From: an uncultured Gammaproteobacteria bacterium
GTDB taxonomy: Bacteria > Patescibacteriota > Microgenomatia > Levybacterales > UBA12049
Assembly (NCBI GenBank): GCA_964507055.1
Contig: CAZDOJ010000001.1
Location: 401,313 to 465,312, forward strand
DNA: 64,000 nt
Direction of reading: 5' to 3'
Shown: piece after piece, positions 20,655 through 64,000 of the stretch
How positions within the stretch are numbered: position 1 is the first letter of the stretch
Layout: each line of letters begins with the position of its first letter
Notes under the pieces: generated by a model
Told to the model about the DNA's origin: nothing
Database searches by the model: none
What the model saw: the letters and a program-made list of their open reading frames with translations, nothing else
Program-made: the position numbers and the translations under genes

Positions 20655-20682
20655 AATGTAATCACCTCCTTTGGTTCATAGA

Positions 20683-27411: not shown

Positions 27412-27459
27412 AATAAAATTTGAACAATTTATGTAATATTCAATTTTAATGAGACTCAT

Positions 27460-27492: not shown

Positions 27493-27528
27493 AGGATAAC
27501 TCATAGTTATAAAATTGTAATGCTAATT

Positions 27529-28113: not shown

Positions 28114-28129
28114 ATTATTATTAATTTAA

Positions 28130-28315
28130 TTATTTAGTACGATTTACTAAATAACGACTGATTTGACCTGCTAAGATAACAAGCCATACGACATTAAGTA
28201 CTATAAAACCTGCTAATACTATTGGGTTACTAAAGTCAGCAAAAAATGCTCCTGCTGCTGAAGTAGCCGGTAATACCGCTGCGCCTAATACTTGTCCTTT
28301 TCCGTAATCTGTCAT
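28130..28315 (-). CDS. small (61 aa) membrane protein with the LPATSAAG motif (paralog of 20475-20654)
   Basis: RBS AAAGGAGAAACT upstream of the ATG at 28315. Sequence: MTDYGKGQVLGAAVLPATSAAGAFFADFSNPIVLAGFIVLNVVWLVILAGQISRYLVNRTK. The raw ORF 28130-28471 carries an artifactual N-terminal extension that overlaps the GT2 gene. Confidence 0.6.
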   Translation of the reverse strand: MTDYGKGQVLGAAVLPATSAAGAFFADFSNPIVLAGFIVLNVVWLVILAGQISRYLVNRTK

Positions 28316-28328
28316 AGTTTCTCCTTTC

Positions 28329-29591
28329 TTAGTTTTTTGTTCCCCACTTTGTTGAGAATCCTGCCTTATTAAAGGCTGCGAGTCCCCAATTATATGGAGC
28401 ATTGAATAAAGATATTTTATTTGCGATGGGTTTAAAGATTTTGTTGTATACGATGAACAAATATGAGCCAAGTAAAATAAGACTCAATAAGTTACTGTAA
28501 ATAAGTTCAGGAAGAACTGTTAATTTCATCGCCCAATCTTTCTTATCACTGTCTTCGTAAAGTGCCAATGAAACGACATTGAAAATGAACGCAACTAAGA
28601 AGTTGAATAATGAAAGTCCAAATAAGATAAGCACTGTTTCAGGTTCACTCTTTCCTGTTCGAACAAAGAAGAATGAAAGGACAATCAATCCGAAAAGACT
28701 TAAGAAAAGAATATGACCGATAAGGTCTTGGTAGACGACATCAAATTTCTTCCAGAATTCTCCCAATACATGCAATCCACCACTTACCCATCGAACACGT
28801 TGTTTCCAAAGTGCTTCGATGGTTTCAGGAACTGTTGTCCATGCGATTGCTTTTTGTGCAATCTTTACATTCCAGCCTTCACTCTTCAATCGTGCAGTAA
28901 TGTCATAATCTTCAATTAAATGACCTTTGGTAAAACCATTGATTTCTTGAATTGCATCTGTTCTAAAAGCAGTCAACATACCATGCATAACAAGTGGTCC
29001 TTTTAAGAAACCGTTATCTGCAATCTTTGTAATGTTAAAGTTGTGATACTCAAGTGCTTGCAAACGCGTAAGGAAGTTTTTGTTCTTGTTAATGACACGA
29101 ACTTCTGAACAAACTGCACCGATTGTTTCATCAGAATATAATGTTGCAATCATTTTCGTTACAGTCTTTTTAGTAATAATGACATCATCATCAAAAGTGA
29201 AAATTACATCTGGTTTGGTATTAAGACTTAATACATATTCAATACCATGGTTTAATGCACCAGCTTTTAATTCATTCTTTGGAGTTCTCAAATATGCCAT
29301 GTTGTTATGTTCATTTGCGAGATCTTTAATCTTGTTCAAAATTCTAAGATTTTTTTCTGTTTCTGGAGTACAATCATCAATAACTACAAGGATAGCTTCT
29401 GGGTGCCATTCAAGAATAGACTTTATAAGATTATGGGTCATTTCAGATGGAGTGTGAGTTGGAACAAGAATTGCTGGAAGTTTACTATGTACAATAGCCT
29501 CATTTATTTCAATTCTTTCTTTTTTTGGAGCAAAGAAATGCACGGAGTTCTCCGCAATTACTTTGAATGTATTTCTTGGTTTTCTGTTCAT
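28329..29591 (-). CDS. processive family-2 glycosyltransferase (paralog of 20683-21981)
   Basis: VVIDDCTP, QRVRWVSGG and C-terminal TM helices; the catalytic core is similar to the 20683 protein. Confidence 0.85.
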   Translation of the reverse strand: MNRKPRNTFKVIAENSVHFFAPKKERIEINEAIVHSKLPAILVPTHTPSEMTHNLIKSILEWHPEAILVVIDDCTPETEKNLRILNKIKDLANEHNNMAYLRTPKNELKAGALNHGIEYVLSLNTKPDVIFTFDDDVIITKKTVTKMIATLYSDETIGAVCSEVRVINKNKNFLTRLQALEYHNFNITKIADNGFLKGPLVMHGMLTAFRTDAIQEINGFTKGHLIEDYDITARLKSEGWNVKIAQKAIAWTTVPETIEALWKQRVRWVSGGLHVLGEFWKKFDVVYQDLIGHILFLSLFGLIVLSFFFVRTGKSEPETVLILFGLSLFNFLVAFIFNVVSLALYEDSDKKDWAMKLTVLPELIYSNLLSLILLGSYLFIVYNKIFKPIANKISLFNAPYNWGLAAFNKAGFSTKWGTKN

Positions 29592-47325: not shown

Positions 47326-48141
47326 ATGAAAAAGCTTATCTTTACAGTACTAACAAAAGCTCGACAAATAGCATATAGATCACTTGCTCAGTTTGACCGC
47401 ACAATTACCAAGAGTACCAATCAGATATTTGTCCTTTCTTATCACAGTATCGCAAATGATGATTGGCGTTTTAGTGTCTCTGAAAAAGCACTCAAGCAAC
47501 AGATCGAATATCTTCAAAAACACTTTACTATCATCACACTGCAAGATCTTCAAAACCACATCACAGGAAAAAAGAGTATAACCTCCCCTTCAGTCGTCTT
47601 GACGTTTGATGACGGATATAGCGATATCTTAAAGTGGAAAGATTACTTCAAGAAGAAAAAAATTACTCCAGCGTTGTTTATCCTTTCAAATACCAAAACT
47701 CCTAACTGGAAAGAGCTCGGAACAAAAAGAAGATTCCTTACACCAGGCGAAATAAAGTCGCTGCTTACATTAGACTGGGAAATTGGCAGTCATAGTGCTA
47801 CACATGCTAACCTTGCTACATTGACCAATGACCAATTGCAAGAAGAAATTGTCGAAGCAAAGAAACAATTGGAGAAAGCTATTGGAAATAAGGTGAAGTA
47901 CTTTGCATATCCAAGAGGTAAATATGACCAAAATGTAGTACGCTATATAAAGAAAGCAAAATACTCTATGGCACTTACCATGGATGATGGCTTTATACAA
48001 CAAGATATGGATATGTTGAGAATTCCTCGAATCGGAATCGACAATACACATTCTTTTGAAGAGTTTAAAACAACATTTTCTCCTTCGGTTGTCCGACTGA
48101 GAAAAGTTATTAAAGAAAGTCCAGTAGGTAAATATTTATGA
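47326..48141 (+). CDS. polysaccharide deacetylase (CE4/NodB)
   Basis: VVLTFDDGY, GSHSATHANL and YFAYPRGKYD motifs. Confidence 0.85.
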   Translation: MKKLIFTVLTKARQIAYRSLAQFDRTITKSTNQIFVLSYHSIANDDWRFSVSEKALKQQIEYLQKHFTIITLQDLQNHITGKKSITSPSVVLTFDDGYSDILKWKDYFKKKKITPALFILSNTKTPNWKELGTKRRFLTPGEIKSLLTLDWEIGSHSATHANLATLTNDQLQEEIVEAKKQLEKAIGNKVKYFAYPRGKYDQNVVRYIKKAKYSMALTMDDGFIQQDMDMLRIPRIGIDNTHSFEEFKTTFSPSVVRLRKVIKESPVGKYL

Positions 48142-49736
48142 GAGATCTTTTTAATCAGAACATGCTAAAGGTTATTGGTCACGCGTTCCTCGCGATTTTT
48201 TGCGTTCTTGTACTCGCACTTTCTGTCAGAGGAATTGCAGGAAATCCTACAGCTCCAGAATTAAATAGATTGATTTGGAAAGATAATGGTCCTTTAGAAT
48301 TATCACCTGAGCGGGGAAGATTCGCTTTGATGTATGCAATTGCTGAGGAAAAATCATTTTCTTTCTCCCCAGATCTCGCACGATTTGCTGCACCTGACGT
48401 AGCATACACTGCTGGGAAGTATGTTTCTCTTTTTGCACCAGCTGTTTCTTATATTGCTGTCCCTGGTTATTTACTTGGAAAGATGTTTGGTCTAGCACAA
48501 GTCGGTGCTTTCGCAATTATCGCTTTATTTGCCTTAATAAACATGTACCTCATCCGAGCTATAGCAATTAAAGTAGGAGCACATCCTGTGGCAGCAACAC
48601 TTGGTGGATTAACCTTTCTCTTTGCAACTCCAGGGTTTGCATATGCAGTTACGTTATATCAACACCATATTTCAACATTTCTTATCTTGATGAGTATTTA
48701 TTTACTGATCAGATACAATACGATTTGGTCACTCATGGGTATTTGGCTTTTGTGTGCATTCTCAATTCCTGTAGATTATCCAAACCTTTTTATGATGCTT
48801 CCAATTGGTGTTGCTGCACTTGGAAAAGTGTTCATGACCAAACGTGAAGAAGGAAAAATTAACATTAGTATTCCAGTTCTTCGAGTTTTGTCAGTTGCAG
48901 TTATGGCGTTTCCATTAGCCTTCTTTTTATGGTTCAATGCCATGTCTTACGGAAATCCTTTCCAATTATCAGGTACTATCGAGCGTTCTATTGAAGTAAA
49001 AGCAGATGGTTCACCAGTTCTTGAAAGCCAGAAGATTATCGAAGAACTAAAGGCAGCGGGACAACCTATTCCACAAGGTGAATTTAGTAAAAGTAATTTC
49101 TTGGCCTTCTTCCAAACCAGGCAACTCATGAATGGTATGTACGAACATTTCATCAGCCAAGATCGCGGCATGTTGTACTTTACCCCAGTTATGATTCTCG
49201 GTTTCATTGGAATCATTTATGCTATCCGAAAAAGGATGCCGCATGTTGGTTTGTTTGTAGCAATTATTGGATTTAATATTTTGCTTTATTCTATGTGGAC
49301 TGACCCATATGGAGGATGGGCTTTTGGATCACGATATCTGATCCCTGCGTATGCAATTCTCTCGATTTTTATCGGATATCTTTTAACCAAATGGCATCGA
49401 TATAATCTATTTCTTTTATTTTTCTTTGCACTCTTTAGTTACTCAGTAGCGGTCAATACGCTTGGTGCAATTACCTCGAATAGAAATCCACCAAAGGTTG
49501 AAGCGGTTGCACTTTCTGAAATTACTAAGCAAGAAGAGCCATATACATACATGAGAAATGTTAATTTACTCAATCGTAATTTATCAAAGTCATATTTCTA
49601 TGAAACCCATGTTTCAAACGCTATGACAGCATGGCAATATTACACCTTCCTGACGGCATTTATTATTATTGTCTCTGCATTTTTACTAACTATCTTTAAA
49701 GTATTAGCGAAGGGAGGATCTCACCATGCGGTTTGA
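48138..49736 (+). CDS. GT-C-type polytopic membrane glycosyltransferase (putative)
   Basis: More than 10 TM helices and the first-loop motif ELSPERGRFALMYAIAEE. It is translationally coupled within the glycan operon. Confidence 0.5.
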   Translation: MRDLFNQNMLKVIGHAFLAIFCVLVLALSVRGIAGNPTAPELNRLIWKDNGPLELSPERGRFALMYAIAEEKSFSFSPDLARFAAPDVAYTAGKYVSLFAPAVSYIAVPGYLLGKMFGLAQVGAFAIIALFALINMYLIRAIAIKVGAHPVAATLGGLTFLFATPGFAYAVTLYQHHISTFLILMSIYLLIRYNTIWSLMGIWLLCAFSIPVDYPNLFMMLPIGVAALGKVFMTKREEGKINISIPVLRVLSVAVMAFPLAFFLWFNAMSYGNPFQLSGTIERSIEVKADGSPVLESQKIIEELKAAGQPIPQGEFSKSNFLAFFQTRQLMNGMYEHFISQDRGMLYFTPVMILGFIGIIYAIRKRMPHVGLFVAIIGFNILLYSMWTDPYGGWAFGSRYLIPAYAILSIFIGYLLTKWHRYNLFLLFFFALFSYSVAVNTLGAITSNRNPPKVEAVALSEITKQEEPYTYMRNVNLLNRNLSKSYFYETHVSNAMTAWQYYTFLTAFIIIVSAFLLTIFKVLAKGGSHHAV

Positions 49737-51357
49737 TTTGAAGTCATTATCTTTCAAGGTATCTCTTGATGATTCGATCATTAGCAAGACCAAACATTTC
49801 TTAGAGAAACGTGCATCAATCATCATCTTCTTTATTTTGTCGATGGTTTCGATTGCATACTTTATTTATTACTATGCAAATGGTCTAGGCGTCGCGTATA
49901 ACGATGCACGATCGCATTTGGATATCTCTCGCCGTGTTGTAGAGAACCTTACACCAGGTTTTGCACAGCTTGGAAGTGTATGGCTTCCTCTTCCCCATTT
50001 GCTTGCAACACTGACAATTTGGAATGACTTTATGTGGCATTCTGGCCTATCCGGTGCGATCCAATCAATGGTCGCTTTCGTGGCTACAGGGCTTATCATT
50101 TATAACATATTGAAAGTCTTTGGTGTGGGATTATTTGGTCGTTTTGTGGGAGTAATCGTCTTTGCTACAAATCTTAACATTCTCTATATGCAGTCCACTG
50201 CTATGACTGAATTGTTGCTTATTGGTACGATGACTGCTGGTGCATATCAATTATTGATGTGGCACAAAGAAGGTACAATGGTTCGCTTACTTCAAGCAGC
50301 ATTTTGGGTAATGCTTTCAACCCTTATTCGATACGATGGATGGTTCTTGCTCGCGTTCTCTTTTGCATTGATCTTTATTCATGCAATTCGGAAATGGGGT
50401 TACAAAACAACTGAAGGAACATTGGTACTATTTACAACGCTCGCAGCTTTTGGTATTGCACTTTGGCTATTCTGGAATTTGATGATTTTTAAAGATCCAT
50501 TGTACTTTGCTTTTGGTCCATTCTCAGCAAACGCACAACAATCACAACTTGAAGCAGCAGGTGTTCTTGAAACAAAGCATAATCTTGGATTCTCTTTCCA
50601 AACCTATATCTATGCTATGGTCTATAACTCAGGCTTGTTTACCTTTATCTTAGGCCTAATCGGTATGGCACTTTTCTGGTTTGATAAAAAAATCAAAGGA
50701 GATCTTCGTATCGCTGCTGTGGCTCTTATGGCTCCATTTGCGTTTAATATCGTTGCATTATTCCTGGGTCACTCAGTGCTTTATGTTCAGGGACTTCATG
50801 GTGAATCGTGGTTTAACGTCCGTTATGGATTGATGATGGTTCCTACACTTGCTATCTTTGTCGGATATCTTGCTCATAGATTAAAACCTGTTCGCGTTGT
50901 CTTACTTTCACTAATTCTTTTTGTTTCAGTATTCTCATTCTCTAACGCTGACGCTGTGACAATTGACGATGCAGTTGTTGGAGCAAGTGGTAAGAATGTA
51001 AAGGAAGTAAGTGGATGGTTGCAAGAAAATGTCACAGGAAAAGAAGGATTTGTGCTTATTTCAGCAGCTTCTCATGATGCGATCATCTTCTCTTCTCACC
51101 TTCCAATGAAACGATTTATCCATGAAGGTACCGGTGAATATTGGAAAGAAGCGACAGCACACCCAAGTCGATGGGCACGATGGATTGTGTTACGAACAAA
51201 TGATCAGAACGATTCGACCTTTAGAGAGATTGGAAAGAATCCAGAATTTAAAGAACGATATACGCTTGAACGTACCCTTCCATTTGCGGATATTTATCAA
51301 CTCAAACCAGAATATGTCGAAGACGTTCGAACGCAACCAAATCTAGAATTAAACTAG
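49726..51357 (+). CDS. GT-C-type (PMT/GT39-like) membrane glycosyltransferase (putative)
   Basis: N-terminal TM bundle with a YNDARSHLDISRRVVENL loop, multiple TM helices and a C-terminal soluble domain. Confidence 0.5.
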   Translation: MRFDLKSLSFKVSLDDSIISKTKHFLEKRASIIIFFILSMVSIAYFIYYYANGLGVAYNDARSHLDISRRVVENLTPGFAQLGSVWLPLPHLLATLTIWNDFMWHSGLSGAIQSMVAFVATGLIIYNILKVFGVGLFGRFVGVIVFATNLNILYMQSTAMTELLLIGTMTAGAYQLLMWHKEGTMVRLLQAAFWVMLSTLIRYDGWFLLAFSFALIFIHAIRKWGYKTTEGTLVLFTTLAAFGIALWLFWNLMIFKDPLYFAFGPFSANAQQSQLEAAGVLETKHNLGFSFQTYIYAMVYNSGLFTFILGLIGMALFWFDKKIKGDLRIAAVALMAPFAFNIVALFLGHSVLYVQGLHGESWFNVRYGLMMVPTLAIFVGYLAHRLKPVRVVLLSLILFVSVFSFSNADAVTIDDAVVGASGKNVKEVSGWLQENVTGKEGFVLISAASHDAIIFSSHLPMKRFIHEGTGEYWKEATAHPSRWARWIVLRTNDQNDSTFREIGKNPEFKERYTLERTLPFADIYQLKPEYVEDVRTQPNLELN

Positions 51358-52589: not shown

Positions 52590-52636
52590 CCTATAACATT
52601 TAATATAGGCTTATTTAAATGCCTAGAAATAAATAT

Positions 52637-53251
52637 ATGAATAAGAAAATTTTACTTACAACTTTGGCGTCTACAGCACTGTTTTTAACAGCTGCTACTC
52701 CTGTACATGCAAATGCTGTACCTGATTTTAGTACATGCCTTAATCCACAATGGACAAAGACTCAACAAAACCTTGGATCAAATCATGGAGTAATCGGTAT
52801 TGGATCATTCTCAGGAACGGATACTATATACGAATCAAATGGTAATGTTTTGCAATGTCTCTGCACATCAGATGGTAAAGGATACCAAACAAACTGGTTG
52901 AAAGCAGACAATATGTCTACATCTCAAAAAGAAGAACTACAATCACAAGGTTGGATTTACGTAGCTTACGGTGAAGACTGGGGTTTGCATAAATCAGCGT
53001 ATATGGCGAAAAACTCTGAATACACATGTGCTGACTGCACACCTACACCGACAACACCAGTTACTCCAACAGTAACAAGTGTTCCAGGACCAACTGCGAC
53101 ACCAGCACCTACAACAAAGACTGAAGAAAAGACAGAAAACAATGTACTTGGTGGTCTCGCACCGACAGGAAATGCTTTGGCTATGTACCTAGCGATCCTC
53201 GCTGGAGTAGGCTCTCTCATCACAGGATTTGTATTACGCAAATCTAAATAA
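52637..53251 (+). CDS. sortase substrate: secreted Cys-rich protein with PT linker and C-terminal LAPTG sorting signal
   Basis: Signal peptide MNKKILLTTLASTALFLTAATPVHA. The C-terminus is LAPTG + hydrophobic helix + RKSK. An alternative start is at 52619. Confidence 0.75.
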   Translation: MNKKILLTTLASTALFLTAATPVHANAVPDFSTCLNPQWTKTQQNLGSNHGVIGIGSFSGTDTIYESNGNVLQCLCTSDGKGYQTNWLKADNMSTSQKEELQSQGWIYVAYGEDWGLHKSAYMAKNSEYTCADCTPTPTTPVTPTVTSVPGPTATPAPTTKTEEKTENNVLGGLAPTGNALAMYLAILAGVGSLITGFVLRKSK

Positions 53252-53263: not shown

Positions 53264-53797
53264 ATGAAACTGCTCTCTACTCTATTTGTTATCATCGGAC
53301 TTCTTCTTATAATTTTTGGTGGATATCAACTCTATTTACGCGAAAATCCGCATAAGCTTTCATTTGATAATTACACATACGCTTCAAACCAAAAGGCTGA
53401 AGAGAAGCAATTGCCTGCACAAATTACGATTAGTGATGTTGATATTGATGTCCCAGTCTACCCTGCTACCGTCTCAAATGGCCAATGGCCAGTTATTGAG
53501 AATGGTGCGTCATATTTAGCAACTTCACCGGTTCCAGGAGAAAAAGGAAATAGTGTGATTTATGCACATAATTGGAAGAATTTATTCGGCAATCTCGTCA
53601 ATGCCAAAACCGGACAAGAAGTTCTTATCACATATAAAGATGGCAGTACAAAGACATTTGTAATTACGTACACAAGTACTGTGTCTCCAACTGAATCGAC
53701 TATTCTCGCTCCTTCAAAAGATAATAGAATTACATTGTATACCTGTACTGGATTTTTGGACTCCAAGCGATTTGTCGTAGTTGCTCTCCTCAAATAA
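53264..53797 (+). CDS. sortase (LAxTG-type, class E-like) with intact His/Cys/Arg
   Basis: N-terminal TM helix; VIYAHNW (His), TLYTCTG (TLxTC) and KRFVVVALL (Arg region). Located immediately downstream of the LAPTG substrate gene. Confidence 0.85.
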   Translation: MKLLSTLFVIIGLLLIIFGGYQLYLRENPHKLSFDNYTYASNQKAEEKQLPAQITISDVDIDVPVYPATVSNGQWPVIENGASYLATSPVPGEKGNSVIYAHNWKNLFGNLVNAKTGQEVLITYKDGSTKTFVITYTSTVSPTESTILAPSKDNRITLYTCTGFLDSKRFVVVALLK

Positions 53798-54016: not shown

Positions 54017-55567
54017 ATGAGATCTTCCAGATTTATATTCATCGCACTAGTAGTTTTCATTTTTGGTTTACTCGGAGCAACATTTTTTAGCTACTCTCAA
54101 AAAGCTCTACAGATTAAAGCAGATGAACAAAAAAGAGAAGCACTCTATTCACAAATTTTAGAAGGAGCAAATACAGCACCAGCATCATTTTTAATAAATT
54201 TTTCTAAACCTACTTCGACAGGTTCTCCCCTTATATTTGGAGGTTCGCATTCGCCTGATTTAAATCACCAGGATGCATGGAATAAAATTGCTGAAATCGG
54301 TGTAACTTCTATAAGAAAAGATTTTTATCCTGAGAATGCACTACCAAAGAATATAACTCTTGAAGAGTATAAAAATAATCTGGGACAAATTCAAAATCCT
54401 GAGAATTGGAATCAAGAAGAATTAGACAAAATAAATGGAATTTACAAAAATGCACATATACGTGGAATGAAAACGATTGGTATAGTATCTTTTTCTCCCG
54501 CCTGGTTGAATTACTCAAATACAATTTATGGAGTACCAAAAGACTGGGATGTCTATGAAGATATTGTTAGAAAAACTTATACGATATATCGGGACAATCT
54601 AGACTACGTAGAACTCTGGAACGAACCCAATTTTAATACTTTTCTTAATACAAAAGATAGCGGATTAACAAAAGATGAGGCTTATTCTAAAATATTTTTT
54701 CATGCCGCAAAAGCAATTAGACAAGTTGATGCTGAAGCGAATGATGGTAAGATTATCCCTATTGGAGGCCCAGCAGGATATGACCCTATTCAAACATCGA
54801 CATTAGAAACTATATTAGAGAACCCTGCAACTCGTGACAAATTAAACTTTGTAAGTTATCATAACTATGAAAGTAAGCACCTAATTGAACCTTCTTGGAC
54901 AAACTATATGCGTGTAATGGAAAAGTATGGTAAAGAGAATTTACCTATTTATATAACCGAATGGAATTACGAACCAGATAGTTCAGTCAAAAGTCCCTTT
55001 AACACTTCAAATTCCGCGATTCCATTTACTGGGAATAAATTTGTAAGTTTCTTAAGAATGGGATTAGCAGGTGCAAATTATCATGTTTTATGGCCATTAG
55101 ATCTTACAAGACCCGATAAAGGAGAAGGCTATATGGGTTTTTATAGATGGGAAAATGGAAAAGCAGAATTACTCCCACAAGCTAAAACATGGAGGCTTAT
55201 GAGCAATAAAATGGGCTTAGGTAAAGGAAAAAGTTCTATATATAACCCTACAAATAATAGTTTGGATTTAAATGGACTGGGATTTATAAATACAGCAAAA
55301 CAATACGGTGCTGTAGTAGTAAATAATGATGGTGTTTCTCATATGGCAAATATTACACTTCAGAATACTAATATCAATCACATTGCTACGGTTGCAGTAT
55401 ATTATGCGTCTGCTGATAATGATGCTACAAAGCCAATTTACGAAGGACATGTAAAGGCTGTAAAAGGCACTATAAATCTACAAGTATATTTACCAAAAGA
55501 GGCCGTTGTGGGTGTTATTGTTGAGCAAGATAAAGAATGGTTTGACTTCTTAAATTTACCGTATTGA
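54017..55567 (+). CDS. membrane-anchored clan GH-A glycoside hydrolase (GH39/GH5-like)
   Basis: N-terminal TM helix; VELWNEPN (acid/base NEP) and YITEWN (nucleophile TEW) in a (beta/alpha)8 context. Confidence 0.6.
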   Translation: MRSSRFIFIALVVFIFGLLGATFFSYSQKALQIKADEQKREALYSQILEGANTAPASFLINFSKPTSTGSPLIFGGSHSPDLNHQDAWNKIAEIGVTSIRKDFYPENALPKNITLEEYKNNLGQIQNPENWNQEELDKINGIYKNAHIRGMKTIGIVSFSPAWLNYSNTIYGVPKDWDVYEDIVRKTYTIYRDNLDYVELWNEPNFNTFLNTKDSGLTKDEAYSKIFFHAAKAIRQVDAEANDGKIIPIGGPAGYDPIQTSTLETILENPATRDKLNFVSYHNYESKHLIEPSWTNYMRVMEKYGKENLPIYITEWNYEPDSSVKSPFNTSNSAIPFTGNKFVSFLRMGLAGANYHVLWPLDLTRPDKGEGYMGFYRWENGKAELLPQAKTWRLMSNKMGLGKGKSSIYNPTNNSLDLNGLGFINTAKQYGAVVVNNDGVSHMANITLQNTNINHIATVAVYYASADNDATKPIYEGHVKAVKGTINLQVYLPKEAVVGVIVEQDKEWFDFLNLPY

Positions 55568-55623
55568 CAAAATAATCTATAAAGCGTATTCTAGTTTCAT
55601 AACTATTCTATAGGTTTATAAAG

Positions 55624-56082
55624 ATGAGTTTACTACCCAAAACCATAAGTCTTCTGAGTTTTTTAACACTTCTTTCTTTTATTTTTATTTCACCAGTCCA
55701 GGCACAAACAGCAAATATAACAACTATCCGAGGACAAATACTTGATGATGAGGGACAACCTTTCAAATTTGCAAAAGTTCAAGTTAATTGTGATGGAAAA
55801 ACTCAAAATTCCATTACAAGTGGTCAAGGAAAATATATTGCAATTTTTGCAGGAAATAATTGCGGGATAGGTGATCCAGTAACAGTAACTGCGACAAAGG
55901 ATGGGAAGTCTGGAAGTAGTACAGGAATTGTACAAAATAGAAGAGATGGTCGTATAGTAGATGTGAATTTCTCAGTAGTCAGTTTTAACATTAATGTTCC
56001 TGAATTTGGATTGCTTCCTGGTGCAATTGCAGCTTTGGGTTCAGCTGGTGCATTCCTCGCTATTCGAAGAAGAAAGATCTAA
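55624..56082 (+). CDS. secreted protein with a PEF/PEP-CTERM-like sorting signal
   Basis: Signal peptide; the C-terminus is VPEFGLLPGAIAALGSAGAFLAIRRRKI, i.e. a P-E-F/P motif, a Gly/Ala-rich TM helix and an RRRK tail. Confidence 0.6.
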   Translation: MSLLPKTISLLSFLTLLSFIFISPVQAQTANITTIRGQILDDEGQPFKFAKVQVNCDGKTQNSITSGQGKYIAIFAGNNCGIGDPVTVTATKDGKSGSSTGIVQNRRDGRIVDVNFSVVSFNINVPEFGLLPGAIAALGSAGAFLAIRRRKI

Positions 56083-56088
56083 GAAGCT

Positions 56089-57027
56089 ATGCTTCATGTG
56101 CTCCTCAAAAATAAACTCTTAATAAGACTATTAATATTTTGTATTTCTTTCATCATACTTTCAGGCTGGTATGGTCCTTGGATAATTGGAACGAAGCTTC
56201 TATACTCTTTTTACTTTTTTGTCTATGGAAACTTAGGAAAAGTTCTCTTATTTTCAGTCTTAGCTCTAGCAATAGTTATAGGTAAACGATATAAAGAAAT
56301 AAAAGTGCCGAACTATGATAAGCATGCATTTGTTTTTCTGTTGATAGCATGGATATTAGCTCCTTTGTTCTTTCCAATTGCATCCCTTCTACTTTTAGAA
56401 ATTTCATTTACAAGTAATCTTCCTTTAAGTATTCTTGCTCATTCTTTTATTATTGTAATACCTTTCCTCCTTGCTTTAGGTATATTTGGAATTAAATTTT
56501 GGATAAACTTTCTTAATATTTTTAAGAAAGAAATATATTTATGTGCAGGACTCGCATTATTCTTTTATTTCATGATTTTTTATATATGGACTTTTTGGCC
56601 TTATTTTAGTGATATTGTTTTAAGAAGTGTTCAATTTTTATTTAGTTTAAGTTTTGATAATGTAGTAGTTTTCGAACCTCGAACACTTTTTGTTGAATCA
56701 TTTGCTGTAACAATTGATCAAGCGTGTTCAGGACTAGAGTCTTTTCTACTATTTACTGGATTATGTAGTTTAATTGCTTATGTAGATCGTAGAAAAATTA
56801 ATTGGAAAAAGTTTATCATGTTCTATTTATTTGGCATTTTAGGAACATTTCTGGTAAATATACTACGTGTATACGGAATTATATGGGCTGGACTAATATT
56901 TTCCCCACAAATAGCAGCAGAACTTTTTCATACCTATCTTGGAATGATTTTCTTCCTTCTCTACTTCGTTTTTATCGTAAAGTATTTTTATAAGTACGTT
57001 ATTAATGAAAAGAATAAAAACATATAA
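56089..57027 (+). CDS. exosortase/archaeosortase-family membrane transpeptidase (putative)
   Basis: Eight or so TM helices with IDQACSGLESFLLFTG (conserved Cys-Ser-Gly) and NILRVYGI (Asn-x-x-Arg), placed as in EpsH/ArtA. The gene starts 7 nt after the PEF-CTERM gene. Confidence 0.6.
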   Translation: MLHVLLKNKLLIRLLIFCISFIILSGWYGPWIIGTKLLYSFYFFVYGNLGKVLLFSVLALAIVIGKRYKEIKVPNYDKHAFVFLLIAWILAPLFFPIASLLLLEISFTSNLPLSILAHSFIIVIPFLLALGIFGIKFWINFLNIFKKEIYLCAGLALFFYFMIFYIWTFWPYFSDIVLRSVQFLFSLSFDNVVVFEPRTLFVESFAVTIDQACSGLESFLLFTGLCSLIAYVDRRKINWKKFIMFYLFGILGTFLVNILRVYGIIWAGLIFSPQIAAELFHTYLGMIFFLLYFVFIVKYFYKYVINEKNKNI

Positions 57028-58066
57028 CTCCACAGTTGACCTAATAAGAGCGATAGCAATTATCTTTGTACTTGTAGTGCATGTTTTTAGTGAAATTCTA
57101 ACAAAAACTTCTCCTAATGCGTTGGATTGGCTTATTGCAACATTTTTTGTAACTTTTGGAAAAGTAGCTGTACCCCTTTTTATTATGCTGAGTGGATTTC
57201 TTCTACTTGAAGAACAAAAGAAATACACAATTAGCGAATTCTATAAGAAAAGAATACTTAGAATAGGTTTACCTTTACTTTTTTGGCCCTTTTTTTATTA
57301 TTTGGCCTATATAATTTTTAGCCCTAAGGAATTTAATTGGACGCTTTTTTTTAATGATTATATATTCCTCAATATGTACTATCACTTATACTTTCTTTTT
57401 ATAATCCTGGGCTTGTATTTTATTACCCCAATATTAAAGCCCTTTATTAATTCGTTAAATCTAGCGGAGAAAAAAATAACTATATGCTTAATGCTTCTAT
57501 TTTCTCTTATTATCACGAGTATTCATTACTATGCCCCAACACGGTTAAATTTTTGGACAATATTTACAGTATTCATTCCGTACATTTCTTTTTATGCGGC
57601 AGGCAACTATTTAAAATATATAAAAATATCTAAGAGGACACTAATTAATCTTCTACTATTTTCAGTAATTATTGTTTTAGTTACAGTATTTGCTAAATAT
57701 TTAATGCAAATATATATATATAGTAATTGGATTAACCAATACCCTGCAGATGGGCTAAGCATATTTGTTCTACCGTTATCTATACTTTCTTTTATTATAT
57801 TATTTAATGCTGAAAGAAACAGTAAAAATTTCTCAAACTTAGCAAAAAGTGGCCTTATTCGCAAACTTGCAGTAGCATCTTTTGGGATATATCTTATTCA
57901 TCCACTTTTTCTATATTTAATTAATAAATATACCTTAAATATTCATTTAAACGGACTATTATTAATATTATATTTATTTGTTAAAATTGTTATATTACTT
58001 ATACTTTCTTATTTATTTACATATATCCTAAGTAAAATACCAGTATTGAAGAAACTCATTTCATAG
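57005..58066 (+). CDS. acyltransferase-3 family membrane O-acyltransferase
   Basis: VDLIRAIAIIFVLVVHVF and about 10 TM helices; the OatA/WecH-like fold is commonly found in glycan clusters. Confidence 0.75.
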   Translation: MKRIKTYNSTVDLIRAIAIIFVLVVHVFSEILTKTSPNALDWLIATFFVTFGKVAVPLFIMLSGFLLLEEQKKYTISEFYKKRILRIGLPLLFWPFFYYLAYIIFSPKEFNWTLFFNDYIFLNMYYHLYFLFIILGLYFITPILKPFINSLNLAEKKITICLMLLFSLIITSIHYYAPTRLNFWTIFTVFIPYISFYAAGNYLKYIKISKRTLINLLLFSVIIVLVTVFAKYLMQIYIYSNWINQYPADGLSIFVLPLSILSFIILFNAERNSKNFSNLAKSGLIRKLAVASFGIYLIHPLFLYLINKYTLNIHLNGLLLILYLFVKIVILLILSYLFTYILSKIPVLKKLIS

Positions 58067-58133: not shown

Positions 58134-59393
58134 ATGATTAAAGTAAAAAAAATTATAAATAAATTCTATAATGACTCTTTATACAGAAATTCTATATTTC
58201 TAATGCTTACCACGTTTACAGGTGCACTTGCTGGAATGCTTTTCTGGACAATCAACACGAAATTATATACTCCAGAGGAAGTAGGAATTGCCACAGCAAT
58301 GATATCTTCTATGACTCTAATAACTGGGTTTAGCATGCTAGGATTAAATGTTGGGATTATTAGGTATCTGCCCAAGGCTAAAAATAAATCTGAAAATATA
58401 AATACTGTAATAACTACAGTACTTCTTTCTTCTTCTTTAATTTCATTGGTATTTCTATTAGGTCTAAATTATTTCTCTCCAAAGCTAGCATTTCTTCAAC
58501 AAAATTATATCTTTTTCATTATTTTTATCTTACTCGCTGTTATATTATCCATTGATAACATATTTAGTAATACTTTTATTGCAACTCGTAACTCTAAATA
58601 TGTATTTTATAAAAGCATTTTAGGCAATATTTTAAAAATACTTGCTCCCTTTGCACTTATTGGATTAGGTTCATATGCAATATATTTGTCATCTTCTTTA
58701 TCGTTTGTAGTAGCATTTATACTAGGCATTATAATTTTATATAAAACATTAAATTATAAAATAAGGTTCGCAATTAATAAAAATATACTTAAAAACATGT
58801 TTAAGTTATCATTTACCAATTACATTGCATCATTTTTAGCAAGCCTACCTTTGTCATTACTTCCGATTCTTATTGTTAATCAGCTTGGAAGTAAAGAAGC
58901 TGGCATATTCTATTTGGATTTAATGATAATCAACTTACTCAATACTATACAGTCATCAATAGGACAATCTTTATTTGCAGAAGGAAGTAATGATATAAAA
59001 GATTTGAAGAAACATGTATTAAAGGCAGTTAAATTTATCATATTAATCCTTGTCCCTGCAATATTAATTACGATATTTTTGGGACAATATATATTACTTA
59101 TTTTTGGAAAAGTTTACTCTGATGAAGGTATCTATCTTTTAAGATTATTGGCGATTTCTGTAATATTTACTTCTATTAATGGATTATTGAGTGCCATATT
59201 GAATATTAAAGCGAAGGTCAATCTTATATTGATAATGTGCATAATTGGCCCTATAATTCTACTTACGTTTATTTACTTTTTACTTCCGAGTGGGTTAATA
59301 GCATTAGGCTATGCATGGCTATTTGGAGAAGCTTTGATTTCGATTATATATATGAGTATGGTATACTTTAAAATTGTTAGAATAAAAACATGA
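58134..59393 (+). CDS. Wzx-like polysaccharide flippase (MOP superfamily)
   Basis: About 12 TM helices and the N-terminal N/K-rich helix-loop typical of Wzx. It lies in an operon with glycosyltransferases. Confidence 0.65.
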   Translation: MIKVKKIINKFYNDSLYRNSIFLMLTTFTGALAGMLFWTINTKLYTPEEVGIATAMISSMTLITGFSMLGLNVGIIRYLPKAKNKSENINTVITTVLLSSSLISLVFLLGLNYFSPKLAFLQQNYIFFIIFILLAVILSIDNIFSNTFIATRNSKYVFYKSILGNILKILAPFALIGLGSYAIYLSSSLSFVVAFILGIIILYKTLNYKIRFAINKNILKNMFKLSFTNYIASFLASLPLSLLPILIVNQLGSKEAGIFYLDLMIINLLNTIQSSIGQSLFAEGSNDIKDLKKHVLKAVKFIILILVPAILITIFLGQYILLIFGKVYSDEGIYLLRLLAISVIFTSINGLLSAILNIKAKVNLILIMCIIGPIILLTFIYFLLPSGLIALGYAWLFGEALISIIYMSMVYFKIVRIKT

Positions 59394-60295
59394 AAGAACC
59401 CTTAATTTATATAGTCCTCTTAAACTGGAATGGTTACAAAGATACAATAGAATGTGTTAAAACCTTGAGCAAAGTAAAATACAAGAATTTTAAAATTCTT
59501 ATAGTAGATAACGCTTCAGCGAATGAATCTGTAAAAGTATTAAAAAAAGAACTTCCTCAAATCAAGTTACTTGTGAACAAAGAGAATTTAGGTTTTTCTG
59601 GTGGATGTAATGTTGGAATTAAATACGCACTTAAAGATAAAGCAGATTATGTCTTATTGCTTAATAACGACACGCTCGTGGACAAAAATTTCCTTACGGA
59701 ATTGATTAAGGTATCAGAGAGTGATAAGAATATTGGGATAGTCAGCCCTTTTATTTTTTATGCGGATTCGCCAAAAAAAATATGGTCTGCAGGATTAAAC
59801 TTCCGCTACAAAAATGCATGGCCCTTTATTGATGAGAACAGAGAAACGCTTGATAAAGGACAATTTAAAAAACCTTTGAAAAATGAGTATCTAACTGGTT
59901 GCAGCATGTTAATAAAAAAAGACGTATTTAATAAGATTGGGTATTTTAAAGATGAATATTTCTTATATTTAGAAGACATGGATTTTAGTGTAAGAGCTAC
60001 CCGATGTAATCTCACTCTATATTCTGTACCTTCATCAAAAATTTGGCATAAGATCGGACAATCAAGTAAAGGAGGAAGCCACAAAGTAAAATACTTCTTT
60101 GTCCGAAATACATTACTTTTCTTTAAATATAATTTTACTCAAAAAGAAATATCAAAATATGTTTACTATTACATTAAAGAATATCTTTATCAATTTCTCC
60201 AATGCTTAAAGCAAAGAGATTTTATGCGAGCAAAAGCAATTCTAATTGGTTTTTATCATGGGATAACCGGCAAAACAGGTAATATTACCTTATAG
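59390..60295 (+). CDS. family-2 glycosyltransferase
   Basis: IVLLNWNGYKDT, ILIVDNASANES and NLGFSGGCN (rhamnosyl/galactofuranosyl-transferase-like GT2). Confidence 0.8.
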   Translation: MKEPLIYIVLLNWNGYKDTIECVKTLSKVKYKNFKILIVDNASANESVKVLKKELPQIKLLVNKENLGFSGGCNVGIKYALKDKADYVLLLNNDTLVDKNFLTELIKVSESDKNIGIVSPFIFYADSPKKIWSAGLNFRYKNAWPFIDENRETLDKGQFKKPLKNEYLTGCSMLIKKDVFNKIGYFKDEYFLYLEDMDFSVRATRCNLTLYSVPSSKIWHKIGQSSKGGSHKVKYFFVRNTLLFFKYNFTQKEISKYVYYYIKEYLYQFLQCLKQRDFMRAKAILIGFYHGITGKTGNITL

Positions 60296-60302: not shown

Positions 60303-61361
60303 CTAATAATTAATACACTCTTCATATACATCTTCAAATTCTTTACCTATCACCTTTATATCAAACTTTTTAATCCACTCCTTTGTCGATTTATTATATT
60401 TTTTCTTTGATTTAATAAGACTTATAATTTTTTCAGCTATATCTTCAGGATTTTCTGGCTCCGCATACACACCCGATATTCCTTCTTTAACCGCATCAAC
60501 TACCCCTCCAACAGCAGAGGCTACTACTGGAATACCATATGCATTTGCCTCCAGATAGACAATTCCAAAGCCTTCCACGCTATCATGAAGTTCTAAAACA
60601 GGTAACACAAAAATATCTAGCTTCGGATAAAAATTCTGTATTTTTTCTTTCTCTGTAATCTTTCCAAAATATTTCCACTTAAATTTAGCTTTTTTCAACT
60701 CATTTAAAATTAATTCTTTTTGATCACCGTCACCTGCTAAATAGTATTCAAAATCAAGATTAGTTTTTTCTTGTAATATATTCAAAGATTTTATAATATT
60801 TATGACGTTTTTTCTTTTCACTAATCTAGATAAAGTTCCAAGAATAATTTTTTTATTTTTAACTTTCCGGACGTTCTTCATTTTTGAGACATCAACACTT
60901 GGATAAATTATTCTTATTTTATCTGCATCTATATTAAAATTGTCTAATAATAACTTCTTTGTATATGAACTATCCGCTGTGATACCGAATGCATTTTCCA
61001 GCGTATGTTGATATTTTTTTTTAATGTATCCTCTCATATGAAATGGTAAGATTTCTAAACCGTGACATGTAACAATATATTTATTTTTTTTTAGATACAA
61101 AGCAGATTTTATATGCCAACTATGAATCACATCTGAATCATTTAGAATACGATTTAGATATGAAGCCCTTATAAGCATTAAGAAATCATAGACATACTCT
61201 ACTCTACTTAAGATGTTAAGGATAAATATATTAGGGTATCCATTTACAAAGTCCCTGTTATTAAATGTGTATCGGTTCTTCATTGTATCTTGCACAGAGA
61301 ATGCAAATTTCTGAATTCCACCTTTTACATTTATATCAGGAATAATATATGTTATTTTCAT
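60303..61361 (-). CDS. family-4 (GT-B) glycosyltransferase
   Basis: EGFGIVYLEANAYGIPVVASAVGGVVDAV (EX7E region). Confidence 0.85.
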   Translation of the reverse strand: MKITYIIPDINVKGGIQKFAFSVQDTMKNRYTFNNRDFVNGYPNIFILNILSRVEYVYDFLMLIRASYLNRILNDSDVIHSWHIKSALYLKKNKYIVTCHGLEILPFHMRGYIKKKYQHTLENAFGITADSSYTKKLLLDNFNIDADKIRIIYPSVDVSKMKNVRKVKNKKIILGTLSRLVKRKNVINIIKSLNILQEKTNLDFEYYLAGDGDQKELILNELKKAKFKWKYFGKITEKEKIQNFYPKLDIFVLPVLELHDSVEGFGIVYLEANAYGIPVVASAVGGVVDAVKEGISGVYAEPENPEDIAEKIISLIKSKKKYNKSTKEWIKKFDIKVIGKEFEDVYEECINY

Positions 61362-62548
61362 ATGCTCTTTATTAAATCTTTATATAAATTACCTCGCATT
61401 TTTGCGATATTCTCAGATTCAAACTTAGATCTATATTTTTTAAGATTCTCGATCATTTTAGAGTATAGATGCCTGTTACTTAATAAAGAACTAATAGCCT
61501 GTTCTAACGCTTTAGAATCATTGGGTCTAACTAGTAAACCTGTTTTATTATTTGTTATGCCTTCTGGTATTCCACCTGTATCAGTTGCTATACATGGTGT
61601 TAACGTAGCGTATGATTCTTGAATGAATCTACCGAATGGCTCTGGCCAGATAGAGGGAGCTGCTATTAAGTGACTTTTCTTATAGAGTTCGATAACTTCT
61701 TTATTTGTTAATTTTCCCAACAAGAAAATGTTTTTTACTTTGTTCTTGATAATGTACGCTTTTAATTTTTCTTTCTCTGGGCCATCGCCAGCTATATTTA
61801 GTTTTATACTATTATCATCAAGTTTCTGAAATGCCTCTACAAGGGTCCATATTCCTTTCTCAGAGGTTAATCTACCCGCAAAGGCTATAGACTTGTCGGT
61901 TATTTTTTTAGTAGTTACGTTGGGGATGTCAGGTAGTAGATTAGGAATTACTTCTATTCTTTCTGATTTAAAACCATGGGTAACAAGTTGTTTCTTTAAA
62001 TACTCACTTATCGTTATTATTCTGACCTTAGAATTTTTATGTGCTAATGAATGTTTGATACTATTCAGGTAGATCATAGATGATATTTTTTCATAAAGGT
62101 AAATTGGATACCTTGCTATACTTTTTTCAGTATATTTAATAGGTAATAGTACATAATCACGTACATCTATGACAACGGGTTTATTTGTATGAATTGCAGC
62201 AATGACGCTTGGTAAATAATAATGTCCTCCAAATACACACTGTATGAGATCTGGATCTAATTCTTTAAGTATAACTTTAGTTCTGAAGTAGTTCTTAAAA
62301 TGGTAGGTAATCATATCTAGGTAATGATTTATTTTTTTTGAAGAAGTCGATAAGTCTTTATACATATCTACTAATATTGGTATAACTTTATTATCTTCAT
62401 GTATCCATGGCTTTTTAGCATATTTACATGTGACTACGTTTATCTCAAAATCTTTCTTCATTGCCTTTACCATAAGAGCCGTAGATATTTCTGCACCACC
62501 TTTTATATAAGGAGGGTAATTTTGTGATAAGATAACTATTTTTTTCAT
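61358..62548 (-). CDS. family-4 (GT-B) glycosyltransferase
   Basis: EPFGRFIQESYATLTPCIATDTGGIPEGI motif. Overlaps both neighbours by 4 nt. Confidence 0.85.
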   Translation of the reverse strand: MKKIVILSQNYPPYIKGGAEISTALMVKAMKKDFEINVVTCKYAKKPWIHEDNKVIPILVDMYKDLSTSSKKINHYLDMITYHFKNYFRTKVILKELDPDLIQCVFGGHYYLPSVIAAIHTNKPVVIDVRDYVLLPIKYTEKSIARYPIYLYEKISSMIYLNSIKHSLAHKNSKVRIITISEYLKKQLVTHGFKSERIEVIPNLLPDIPNVTTKKITDKSIAFAGRLTSEKGIWTLVEAFQKLDDNSIKLNIAGDGPEKEKLKAYIIKNKVKNIFLLGKLTNKEVIELYKKSHLIAAPSIWPEPFGRFIQESYATLTPCIATDTGGIPEGITNNKTGLLVRPNDSKALEQAISSLLSNRHLYSKMIENLKKYRSKFESENIAKMRGNLYKDLIKSI

Positions 62549-63687
62549 GATGCAGTTTTAAGGTTTGTATATAACTTCTTTAAAAGATCTAAATTATGGG
62601 ACCACGAATAATTACTATCAATCACTTTTTTAGCATTTCTTCCTAAAAGGCTACTATACGTAGGTTTTTTAAACAATTTAATAATAAGCTCAGCAAAATT
62701 TACATTATCATCAGCTAATAAAATATTTTCTTTATCTTTTACAGATATTCCTTCAGCACCTTTTACCGTCGATACAATTGGTTTGCCCATACTCATATAC
62801 TCTAGTATTTTTAAGCGTGTACCTGAGCCGGATGATATTGGACATATACATACACCTGCATCAGAAATATACGGTCGAACATCTTCAACAAACCCCTTAA
62901 GATCTATTGAGGTATCATTTTCATAAAGTAATTTTAACCACTTAGGGGGATTCTTTCCAATGATAATTAATTTATAGTCTTTTATTTTAGATCTAACTTT
63001 TGGGTGTACAAATTCAATATAATTTTTTATTCCCTCTGCATTAGGAGCATATGAAAGTAATCCCATAAAGAGTACCGTATGAGATTTTCGCTTTCTATCA
63101 ATATTTACTTTAAATCGTGTCGTATCGACCGCATTTGAAATAATATGAACTTTTCTGTTAGAGACATACTTTGAAAAATATTCCTTTTCAATATTTGAAC
63201 AAACTATTACGGAATCCATTGTTTTAGCAATTCTTATTTCATCTCTTTTAAGCTTATTTGCCAATAATAGACCAATTAGTCTTTCAGTTAAATTCTTTTT
63301 TCCGATTTCAGAAGTAAATCGAACATAGTCAATATTATGTGTGTCTAAAACTAATTTTGCTTTAACATTTCGCAAGTGTTTATGCAAAGCAAAATAAGAA
63401 CTAAGTTCCTCAAATTGGATTACATCATATTTAGAGATCTTGGACAGAAATATTTTGTCAAAATTTGCTTCTTTTAGAACTTCAACATAAGGGATTCTGC
63501 CTAACAATAGAAAACGTATACGTGTTGATAACGATATCTCTCTATTACTCTTTCCATTTAAAAATGTTTTTGGATAGATTAAGTCTACTTCGTGCAACTT
63601 TCTTAAATTCTTATACATATAAAAATTTCTTGAATCAGCTCCACTATCTAAGCTAATAGGTCGTGTTGTTATTAATGCTATTTTCAT
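62545..63687 (-). CDS. family-4 (GT-B) glycosyltransferase
   Basis: SGSGTRLKILEYMSMGKPIVSTVKGAEGI motif. Confidence 0.85.
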   Translation of the reverse strand: MKIALITTRPISLDSGADSRNFYMYKNLRKLHEVDLIYPKTFLNGKSNREISLSTRIRFLLLGRIPYVEVLKEANFDKIFLSKISKYDVIQFEELSSYFALHKHLRNVKAKLVLDTHNIDYVRFTSEIGKKNLTERLIGLLLANKLKRDEIRIAKTMDSVIVCSNIEKEYFSKYVSNRKVHIISNAVDTTRFKVNIDRKRKSHTVLFMGLLSYAPNAEGIKNYIEFVHPKVRSKIKDYKLIIIGKNPPKWLKLLYENDTSIDLKGFVEDVRPYISDAGVCICPISSGSGTRLKILEYMSMGKPIVSTVKGAEGISVKDKENILLADDNVNFAELIIKLFKKPTYSSLLGRNAKKVIDSNYSWSHNLDLLKKLYTNLKTAS

Positions 63688-64000
63688 TTATATATTTTTG
63701 AGCTCCCATTATTATAAATAACATCTTTATTATCACTTAAAAATCCTTGAGGATATTCATATCTTAAAACATTACCGTTAAAACTTGCATATGTTCTGTT
63801 TTCAACAATATTCGTATAACTAGCATAAACGTATGAATTCTTATAGATGACTTGAGGCAAAATAGTTTTAGTAGTATCTGTCCAAGATGTATATCTTAAC
63901 CTTAAACTTGCATTACCATCAGCAAAAATTGCAGTATTTTTATATCGATGCTTTGCTAACCAATCGCCTGAAACAATTTCAGACTGATGCATATAAAATT
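63684..64000 (-). CDS. hypothetical protein, probably 5'-truncated by the window end
   Basis: The frame is open to the window edge beyond the ATG at 63992. The protein is Tyr/Asn-rich with no motif. Confidence 0.3.
   Translation of the reverse strand, partial: FYMHQSEIVSGDWLAKHRYKNTAIFADGNASLRLRYTSWTDTTKTILPQVIYKNSYVYASYTNIVENRTYASFNGNVLRYEYPQGFLSDNKDVIYNNGSSKIYK

Follow-up and report, generated by a model that had tools for sequence, protein, structure and literature searches.

The gene pair

We analysed a stretch of 64,000 nucleotides (the window) of contig CAZDOJ010000001.1, assembly GCA_964507055.1, which is recorded as an uncultured Gammaproteobacteria bacterium and placed by GTDB in the Patescibacteriota. 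Towards its end, two neighbouring genes on the forward strand encode a secreted protein of 152 amino acids (aa) with a C-terminal sorting-signal layout and a 312-aa integral membrane protein of the exosortase/archaeosortase superfamily. Both open reading frames (ORFs) lie where an earlier note on this DNA had placed them, and the distance given there as "7 nt downstream" corresponds to a spacer of 6 nt (GAAGCT). Judged by their sequences and genomic associations, the two genes probably encode a dedicated exosortase/archaeosortase-type sorting pair of an uncurated subfamily, which occurs in bacteria of the candidate phyla radiation (CPR, Patescibacteria) and in metagenome-assembled genomes (MAGs) labelled as DPANN archaea. 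The positions of most features are compiled in Table 1.

The 152-aa protein starts with a signal-peptide-like segment, MSLLPKTISLLSFLTLLSFIFISPVQA (approximately aa 1-27, ending in ISPVQA ahead of QT), and its end combines the motif VPEFG, the hydrophobic helix LLPGAIAALGSAGAFLAI and the basic cluster RRRKI in the tripartite layout of a sorting signal. AlphaFold2 predicts a signal helix, a beta-sandwich (aa 32-113, local confidence score pLDDT 86-94), a low-confidence segment that includes VPEFG (aa 121-129) and a C-terminal helix (aa 131-151); this model is built on a shallow alignment of 9 sequences and has a pLDDT of 72.8. In a Foldseek comparison with the PDB, the sandwich resembles transthyretin-like (TTR) sandwiches (E about 3e-5), among them the TTR domain of teneurin and one domain from the S-layer protein SlaB. 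The CarboxypepD_reg-type family PF13620 scores 24 bits on the protein, below its cutoff of 32.3. A word-indexed homologue search returned 9 proteins only, because the substrate family diverges too fast, and its homologues were therefore gathered locus by locus. The family evolves rapidly (mean column identity 22%); among 60 homologues Cys80 is invariant and Cys56 is conserved in at least 90%, which fits an extracytoplasmic disulfide. The motif is kept in the 60 clustered homologues with P in 60/60, E in 58/60, F, Y or L in 56/60 and G in 56/60, and V or I precedes the P in 55/60. The consensus of the family tail reads [VI]-P-E-[FYL]-G-x-[IVL]-x-G, followed by approximately 20 uncharged residues and a basic cluster.

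The 312-aa protein is very hydrophobic (grand average of hydropathy 1.1) and belongs to the exosortase/archaeosortase superfamily, as the earlier note had proposed. The NCBIfam signature TIGR04178 matches with 61.1 bits (cutoff 23), and it is matched by all 47 homologues as well; Pfam PF09721 (Exosortase_EpsH) reaches 42.4 bits (cutoff 25.7). The motifs Cys-x-Gly, Asn-x-x-Arg and His-x-x-x-Gly are invariant in the EpsH family (PMC1569441). All three are invariant in our alignments of 17 and 47 homologues, down to 27% identity with the window protein, and C213, S214, G215, N257, R260, H281 and G285 do not vary in the 47-sequence alignment. The AlphaFold2 model is confident (pLDDT 90.5, pTM 0.83) and contains approximately 8 transmembrane (TM) helices (residues 9-33, 44-70, 78-101, 107-133, 146-186, 216-232, 239-270 and 284-304) and a three-stranded sheet just ahead of C213. 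By the positive-inside rule, the K/R-rich loops 71-77, 134-145 and 233-238 and both termini would face the cytoplasm, which would put R260 into the outer half of TM7 and both C213 and H281 close to the outer face. No solved structure resembles the fold (Foldseek against the PDB, best E 0.59), and a profile search found no match among the PDB sequences.

Table 1. Features of the window discussed in the text, with positions counted from its first letter
Feature	Position	Strand	Basis or remark
Substrate gene, 152-aa secreted protein	55624-56082	+	ORF
VPEFG motif, aa V125-P-E-F-G129	55996-56010	+	Presumed recognition and cleavage site
Hydrophobic helix LLPGAIAALGSAGAFLAI, 18 residues	56011-56064	+	Directly after VPEFG
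Helix LLPGAIAALGSAGAFLAI with basic cluster RRRKI	56011-56079	+	Stop-transfer anchor, would be lost on processing
Exosortase/archaeosortase-family integral membrane protein, 312 aa, about 8 TM	56089-57027	+	TIGR04178, PF09721
Candidate catalytic C213 in C213-S-G215	56725-56727	+	CxG motif
Candidate catalytic R260 in N257-I-L-R260	56857-56868	+	NxxR motif
Candidate catalytic H281 in H281-T-Y-L-G285	56929-56943	+	HxxxG motif
Acyltransferase-3 family membrane protein, sugar O-acyltransferase type	57005-58066	+	PF01757, 151 bits
Wzx-like (Polysacc_synt/MOP) flippase	58134-59393	+	PF01943 53 bits, PF13440 51.7 bits
GT2 glycosyltransferase	59390-60295	+	PF00535, PF13641 on identical locus L001
Three consecutive GT4 glycosyltransferases	60303-61361, 61358-62548, 62545-63687	-	PF13439, PF00534, PF13692 on L001
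DUF2206 membrane protein (763 aa), C-terminal part, cut by window end	63684-64000	-	PF09971, L001 gene 17596-19887
GH39-like glycoside hydrolase, N-terminal TM or signal segment	54017-55567	+	PF01229 33.5 bits, cutoff 26
Sortase, His/TLYTC/Arg intact	53264-53797	+	sortase_fam TIGR01076 48 bits, cutoff 39.35
210-aa secreted protein ending in GGLAPTG, helix and RKSK	52619-53251	+	Directly upstream of sortase 53264-53797
Sortase-like protein, catalytic residues intact	19848-20468	-	TIGR01076 38.8 bits, just below 39.35
Sortase-like protein, His to Asn, Cys to Ser, Arg to Lys	27529-28113	-	TIGR01076 21.4 bits
Chitin-synthase-like GT2, two copies	20683-21981; 28329-29591	-	Duplicated module
Small TM ORF, two copies	20475-20654; 28130-28471	-	Duplicated module; long ORF call of second overlaps GT2
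Large polysaccharide-deacetylase-domain proteins	22085-24430; 24562-27459	-	Duplicated module
GH10 xylanase-family protein, N-terminal hydrophobic segment	17960-19720	-	221 bits

Conservation of the pair

A scan of GTDB representative genomes yielded 52 related loci, which together with the window make 53. When the ORFs around the exosortase gene in these 53 loci were clustered, the substrate family formed a cluster of 60 members from 41 loci. Independently of clustering, a regular expression for the motif plus helix found 69 tails among the 3265 ORFs of the 53 loci, so that at least one tail is present in 48 of them (47/52 without the window). The partnership postulated in the earlier note is thus conserved well beyond this contig. 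Tail-bearing loci carry 1-4 copies, and two of the 5 loci without a tail have their upstream DNA cut off. Nearly all tails are encoded on the strand of the exosortase gene (68/69) and most lie within 1 kb of it (58/69), with 56 upstream and 11 downstream.

In the 52 loci, tails are enriched 44-fold within 1 kb of the exosortase gene (53/410 ORFs near versus 8/2407 far, Fisher p = 2e-37), and five permuted or substituted control motifs gave 0 matches versus 68 for the real one. The pairing of tail and exosortase is far beyond chance, and a chance ORF or tail was rejected on these grounds. These data support the upstream protein as the putative cognate substrate of the exosortase. The window itself holds exactly one VPEFG-type tail. 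A profile search with the exosortase in 1.84 billion cluster representatives indicates a sizeable family: 138 proteins match at E <= 1e-30, and the number rises to 917 at a threshold of E <= 1e-10.

Glycan genes, operon layout and gene fusions

The genes downstream of the pair belong largely to glycan metabolism, and the linkage that the earlier note had drawn between the two is borne out: an acyltransferase, a flippase, a GT2 and GT4 glycosyltransferases follow. The acyltransferase gene overlaps the exosortase gene by 23 nt, consistent with their co-transcription, and no terminator-like site was found between 53.7 and 60.4 kb. A sigma-70 promoter scan performed at chance level (39 found, 39 expected), hence the site TTGACA-17-TATTCT at 55564-55592, just upstream of the substrate gene, does not count as evidence for a promoter.

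Of the 40 related loci with at least 4 kb of downstream DNA, 30 have a Polysacc_synt-type flippase between -7 and +8 kb relative to the exosortase gene. A glycosyltransferase cluster (c2) is represented in 31/53 loci, and proteins of approximately 750 aa recur at the position of the DUF2206 protein. The GH39-like gene, the upstream neighbour of the pair, is not conserved next to the exosortase gene in the related loci, and it is uncertain if it is part of the exosortase module.

The exosortase is in some cases fused to proteins of the glycan pathway. Fusions to the flippase occurred at least four times: the order exosortase-flippase was found in loci L043 and L048, both DPANN-labelled, and in protein P0148, and the reverse domain order is present in P0146. 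Flippase fusions in both orders suggest independent events and a close functional coupling. Moreover, P0131 joins the exosortase to a polysaccharide pyruvyl transferase, the enzyme that is encoded as immediate downstream neighbour in 8 loci of the Saccharimonadia clade.

A second recurrent neighbour is a gene for an Rce1-like CPBP protease (PF02517, 36 bits), located approximately 2 kb upstream of the exosortase gene in 21/53 loci, DPANN-labelled ones included. It is paired (e.g. in L020, 8401-9359) with a gene for a 72-aa two-TM protein without Pfam match, which is present in 15/53 loci and absent from the window; no Rce1-like gene exists anywhere in the 64 kb of the window either.

Some further proteins recur close to the exosortase gene or extend it. 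Immediately upstream of the substrate gene, but on the other strand, L021 (4287-4508, - strand) and at least 6 other loci encode a small protein (71-78 aa) that contains the motif LTHFxxWP(H/R)EDTFG and has no Pfam match. DPANN-labelled loci (L038 9544-9945, L047, L048, L054) have their own membrane protein of approximately 133 aa directly upstream of the exosortase, likewise without Pfam match. In the window, two adjacent genes at 48138-51357 (+) encode hydrophobic proteins (532 and 543 aa) that lack a significant Pfam match; L013 and L020 have kept this pair (clusters c16 and c17) at several kb upstream of their exosortase. In addition, P0178, P0180, P0212, P0230, P0248 and P0255 are proteins of 426-515 aa in which an unannotated N-terminal region of 200-300 aa precedes the exosortase core, while P0151 is an 802-aa exosortase-family protein with an unannotated C-terminal extension.

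Hosts, phylogeny and base composition

An identical exosortase protein is present in several Logan assemblies. Homologues with 33-57% identity, as far as they are named, come from Woesebacteria, Microgenomates, WWE3 and other Patescibacteria, and they are already annotated generically as "exosortase/archaeosortase family protein". The hosts of the 52 loci are Microgenomates-type CPR bacteria, WWE3, Saccharimonadia and DPANN-labelled archaea, the last with 7 loci from 6 MAGs (Nanoarchaeota, Woesearchaeota, Pacearchaeota and unclassified archaea). Loci L007-L019, L022, L050 and L057 are labelled "uncultured Gammaproteobacteria" or "Pseudomonadales", and L009 and L049 "Acidiferrales" and "Sulfotelmatobacter", despite CPR-type gene content and a CPR-type position in the exosortase phylogeny. 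Such labels are probably placeholders or taxonomic errors.

A neighbour-joining tree of 49 exosortase sequences (200 bootstraps, no outgroup) contains three deep groups: a DPANN-labelled clade (200/200), a Saccharimonadia clade (200/200) and the remaining Microgenomates/WWE3 sequences, to which the window belongs. Identity to the Microgenomates sequences is 34.5% for the DPANN-labelled and 32.5% for the Saccharimonadia proteins, and the DPANN-labelled exosortases are 47-94% identical among themselves. The tree does not decide between the archaeal and the bacterial origin raised in the earlier note: the DPANN-labelled clade is firm, but with no outgroup included the tree fixes neither its root nor the direction of any transfer between the domains.

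That the DPANN-labelled loci are archaeal rests mainly on the record labels; the annotation of neighbouring genes is ambiguous. Independent support comes from L047 only, where the closest named relatives of a glycyl-tRNA synthetase (GlyRS) encoded 8 kb from the exosortase are almost all from Woesearchaeota or Nanoarchaeota. The DPANN-labelled loci carry the whole cassette of VPEFG tail, exosortase, flippase and Rce1-like gene, which suggests that the module was transferred, or inherited in common, in one piece. L054 (labelled Pacearchaeota) calls for caution, as it encodes a GGDEF diguanylate cyclase (2834-3706, 170 bits) at 5 kb distance from the exosortase; either a DPANN archaeon carries a gene of bacterial type here or the contig is mis-binned.

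The drop in GC content described in the earlier note is real: beyond about 56 kb and as far as the end of the window, the value is 0.28-0.30, down from approximately 0.36-0.40 (0.29 in this block versus 0.375 elsewhere). However, the horizontal acquisition deduced from it is poorly supported. The drop occurs mainly at codon positions 1 and 2, because the encoded proteins are rich in Phe, Ile, Lys, Asn and Tyr, whereas the GC content at third positions (GC3) is 0.23 in the block versus 0.267 +/- 0.042 elsewhere; the substrate gene has a GC content of 0.36. Furthermore, the exosortase-flippase-glycosyltransferase layout recurs across CPR lineages, and this recurrence together with the separate Saccharimonadia clade suggests long residence rather than recent import. 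A recent horizontal import of the low-GC block is hence not supported. Scans for tRNAs and Rfam families found nothing in the window and thus offered no taxonomic anchor.

Relation to known systems

General features place the pair among the exosortase/archaeosortase systems: both generic models are passed, the CxG, NxxR and HxxxG motifs and approximately 8 TM helices are present, and a partner with signal peptide and motif-helix-basic tail is encoded in a polysaccharide locus. The window enzyme differs in that it falls into no curated subfamily, and its relatives live in CPR bacteria and DPANN archaea, both of which are thought to be without an outer membrane. In 2006, PEP-CTERM was tied strictly to organisms with an outer membrane (PMC1569441). 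The earlier note had described the tail as PEP-CTERM or PEF-CTERM and the enzyme as similar to ArtA and EpsH. Of the former, the tripartite layout stands, but PEP-CTERM (TIGR02595) scores 11.2 bits on the whole protein and 15.2 bits on the isolated tail, below its cutoff of 16, and PEF-CTERM (TIGR03024) does not match the isolated tail at E <= 10, where the HMMER filters may drop short weak matches. Among the 60 family tails, PEP-CTERM weakly matches 2, VPEID-CTERM 1 and LPXTG, also weakly, 8. The enzyme reaches no cutoff of ArtA, ArtC, XrtA or EpsH; ArtA (TIGR04125) does not match the window enzyme at all and weakly matches 2/47 family members. The exosortase and its tail represent a subfamily and a signal without curated model.

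The named subfamily with the best score is XrtE (TIGR04162), which, by its NCBIfam name and the TIGRFAM description, is an exosortase fused to a CPBP/Rce1-like protease. Its model matches 47/47 members with the best E-value of all models (2e-21), VPE-FG resembles the VPE-ID motif of its VPEID-CTERM substrates (TIGR04161), and the association with an Rce1-like intramembrane protease, approximately 2 kb upstream in 21/53 loci, is shared. A divergent exosortase E system with its protease encoded separately is nevertheless improbable: the window enzyme reaches 44.4 bits against a cutoff of 150, the best E-value of the family also falls far short of this cutoff, Pfam finds no extra domain in the 312 aa, the protease gene is missing from the window, and VPEID-CTERM hardly matches the tails. 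Even less credit can be given to an archaeosortase C/PEF-CTERM system that CPR bacteria acquired from archaea. The P-E-F core of the signal, the archaeal occurrence, with homologues in DPANN-labelled MAGs and the GlyRS of L047, and the rank of ArtC (TIGR03762) as third-best model would fit it, but ArtC, with a cutoff of 100, reaches 42 bits and weakly matches 18/47 members, and PEF-CTERM gives no match. Most loci and two of the three deep clades are from CPR bacteria, and one tight DPANN clade equally fits a transfer from CPR to DPANN.

The classical PEP-CTERM/XrtA exopolysaccharide system, characterised by many dispersed substrates (median 8 per genome), an outer membrane and the regulators PrsK, PrsR and PrsT, could have been imported recently from a Gram-negative bacterium with a low-GC glycan island. 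The fall in GC content, the linkage to polysaccharide genes and a tail that nearly reaches the PEP-CTERM cutoff are in its favour. We consider such an import highly improbable in view of XrtA (TIGR03109) at 37.4 bits (cutoff 208) and EpsH (TIGR02602) at 38.7 bits (cutoff 105.55), the barely differing GC3, the layout conserved across CPR lineages, the 1-4 cis-encoded tails per locus instead of many dispersed ones, and the close homologues, whose named sources are CPR lineages, many other records having placeholder labels. Equally remote is a role of the 8-TM protein in glycan export or polymerisation, with the tailed neighbour as a C-terminally anchored protein that is never cleaved. EpsH was first annotated in this way, and the glycan locus and flippase fusions would suit such a role. 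However, Cys, Arg and His are invariant across approximately 70% divergence, a hallmark from which transpeptidase chemistry is inferred, and the tailed protein, fast-evolving elsewhere, strictly keeps one short motif exactly where it meets the membrane. Moreover, disruption of EpsH left polysaccharide production of Methylobacillus unaffected (PMC1569441).

Mechanism and acceptor

For the dedicated sorting pair, the following sequence of events can be proposed. The 152-aa protein would be exported by Sec via its signal peptide, its beta-sandwich would fold outside the cell, probably with a Cys56-Cys80 disulfide, and the C-terminal helix would hold it transiently in the membrane with RRRKI in the cytoplasm, which would place VPEFG at the outer face of the membrane. 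There the exosortase would recognise VPEFG and cleave at the motif by attack of C213, giving a Cys-thioester intermediate. Transfer of the new substrate C-terminus to an amine acceptor would resolve the acyl-enzyme.

Several points weigh against this view. No curated subfamily or sorting-domain model matches the pair, and its specificity rests on genomic association. Only one substrate is present, in 64 kb of a 1.32-Mb genome, and the composition of the system varies, as the Rce1-like protease of 21/53 related loci is not found in the window. A nearby flippase is missing from 10/40 loci with enough downstream sequence. Furthermore, 90% of EpsH homologues lie in polysaccharide loci (PMC1569441), and linkage that is general for exosortase genes does not by itself identify the acceptor. 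Finally, the analyses establish the enzyme family, its catalytic motifs, a cis-encoded substrate whose motif is conserved, and the linkage and fusions to flippases; we infer the topology and the cleavage site, as well as transpeptidation and what the acceptor is.

With regard to the acceptor, we tentatively prefer a lipid-linked glycan, flipped by Wzx and built by the adjacent glycosyltransferases and the acyltransferase, because of the flippase fusions. [quoted passage not shown] The main alternative, itself somewhat unlikely, is by analogy with ArtA of Haloferax volcanii a phospholipid amine such as phosphatidylethanolamine, which would leave the protein with a C-terminal lipid anchor and reduce the glycan genes to mere neighbours or to glycosylating the protein separately. 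The one relative studied by experiment, ArtA, is considered to act via a Cys thioester with an amine lipid as acceptor, for which archaetidylethanolamine has been proposed (PMC7157517). ArtA and the window enzyme belong to the same superfamily, both are from hosts without an outer membrane, and they would share the inferred chemistry of Cys nucleophile, essential Arg, cleaved C-terminal anchor and covalent re-anchoring; the loci without a nearby flippase also speak for a phospholipid. The recurrent flippase fusions in both orders and the pyruvyl transferase fusion, however, are difficult to explain if the glycan is irrelevant. In addition, ArtA is linked to PssA/PssD, whereas the window family is linked to the Wzx flippase and no PssA/PssD-like genes were found among its recurrent neighbour clusters, of which some are annotated. 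ArtA also recognises PGF instead of VPEFG and processes up to approximately 50 scattered substrates including the S-layer glycoprotein, compared to 1-4 small cis-encoded ones here. Simple release of the protein appears distinctly unlikely. The wider proposal that the acceptor is the Wzx-flipped lipid-linked glycan and that the whole cassette (tail, exosortase, flippase and often the Rce1-like gene) crossed the boundary between CPR and DPANN is, taken as a whole, unlikely.

Systems of the exosortase type, in which each subfamily has a signal of its own, are well known, and further subfamilies with new signals regularly come to light. New here are the uncurated subfamily and its signal, the host range of CPR plus DPANN-labelled organisms and the recurrent fusions to flippase and pyruvyl transferase. 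We found no publication linking exosortases with Patescibacteria or Saccharibacteria in the literature searched, and the supplements of a transposon sequencing (Tn-seq) paper on Patescibacteria contain no exosortase annotation. Exosortases are widespread, yet no bacterial member is known to have a defined acceptor molecule. In 2020, the acceptor was called "an unidentified compound" (PMC7468200). The present subfamily is an unusually clean case, with 1-4 small substrates beside the enzyme and physical fusions to proteins of the glycan pathway, and these fusions turn a vague "exopolysaccharide (EPS) association" into a specific, testable acceptor hypothesis. If the glycan acceptor holds true, the natural fusions would be the first genomic pointer to an exosortase acceptor; otherwise, the advance is incremental. 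[quoted passage not shown] The substrate protein is likely a component of their surface coat, and the pair may exemplify a multi-gene surface module shared across the domains.

Sortases and other genes of the window

The three sortase-fold proteins reported in the earlier note are real, two with intact catalytic residues and one catalytically dead by its substitutions, as is the LAPTG-tailed protein, although its tail matches no NCBIfam sorting-domain model. What did not hold is the juxtaposition of exosortase and sortases as a trait of the system. Only 2/52 related exosortase loci contain sortase-like ORFs, hence the sortase/LAPTG pair 2.3 kb upstream is regarded as an incidental neighbour and a functional coupling of sortase and exosortase was rejected.

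A four-gene module is duplicated at 19848-29591 (-). It combines a sortase (19848-20468) or a pseudo-sortase (27529-28113) with a processive GT2, in addition to the small TM ORF and the deacetylase-domain protein listed in Table 1. The GH10 protein, together with the GH39-like one, suggests extracellular polysaccharide degradation by a small-genome organism.

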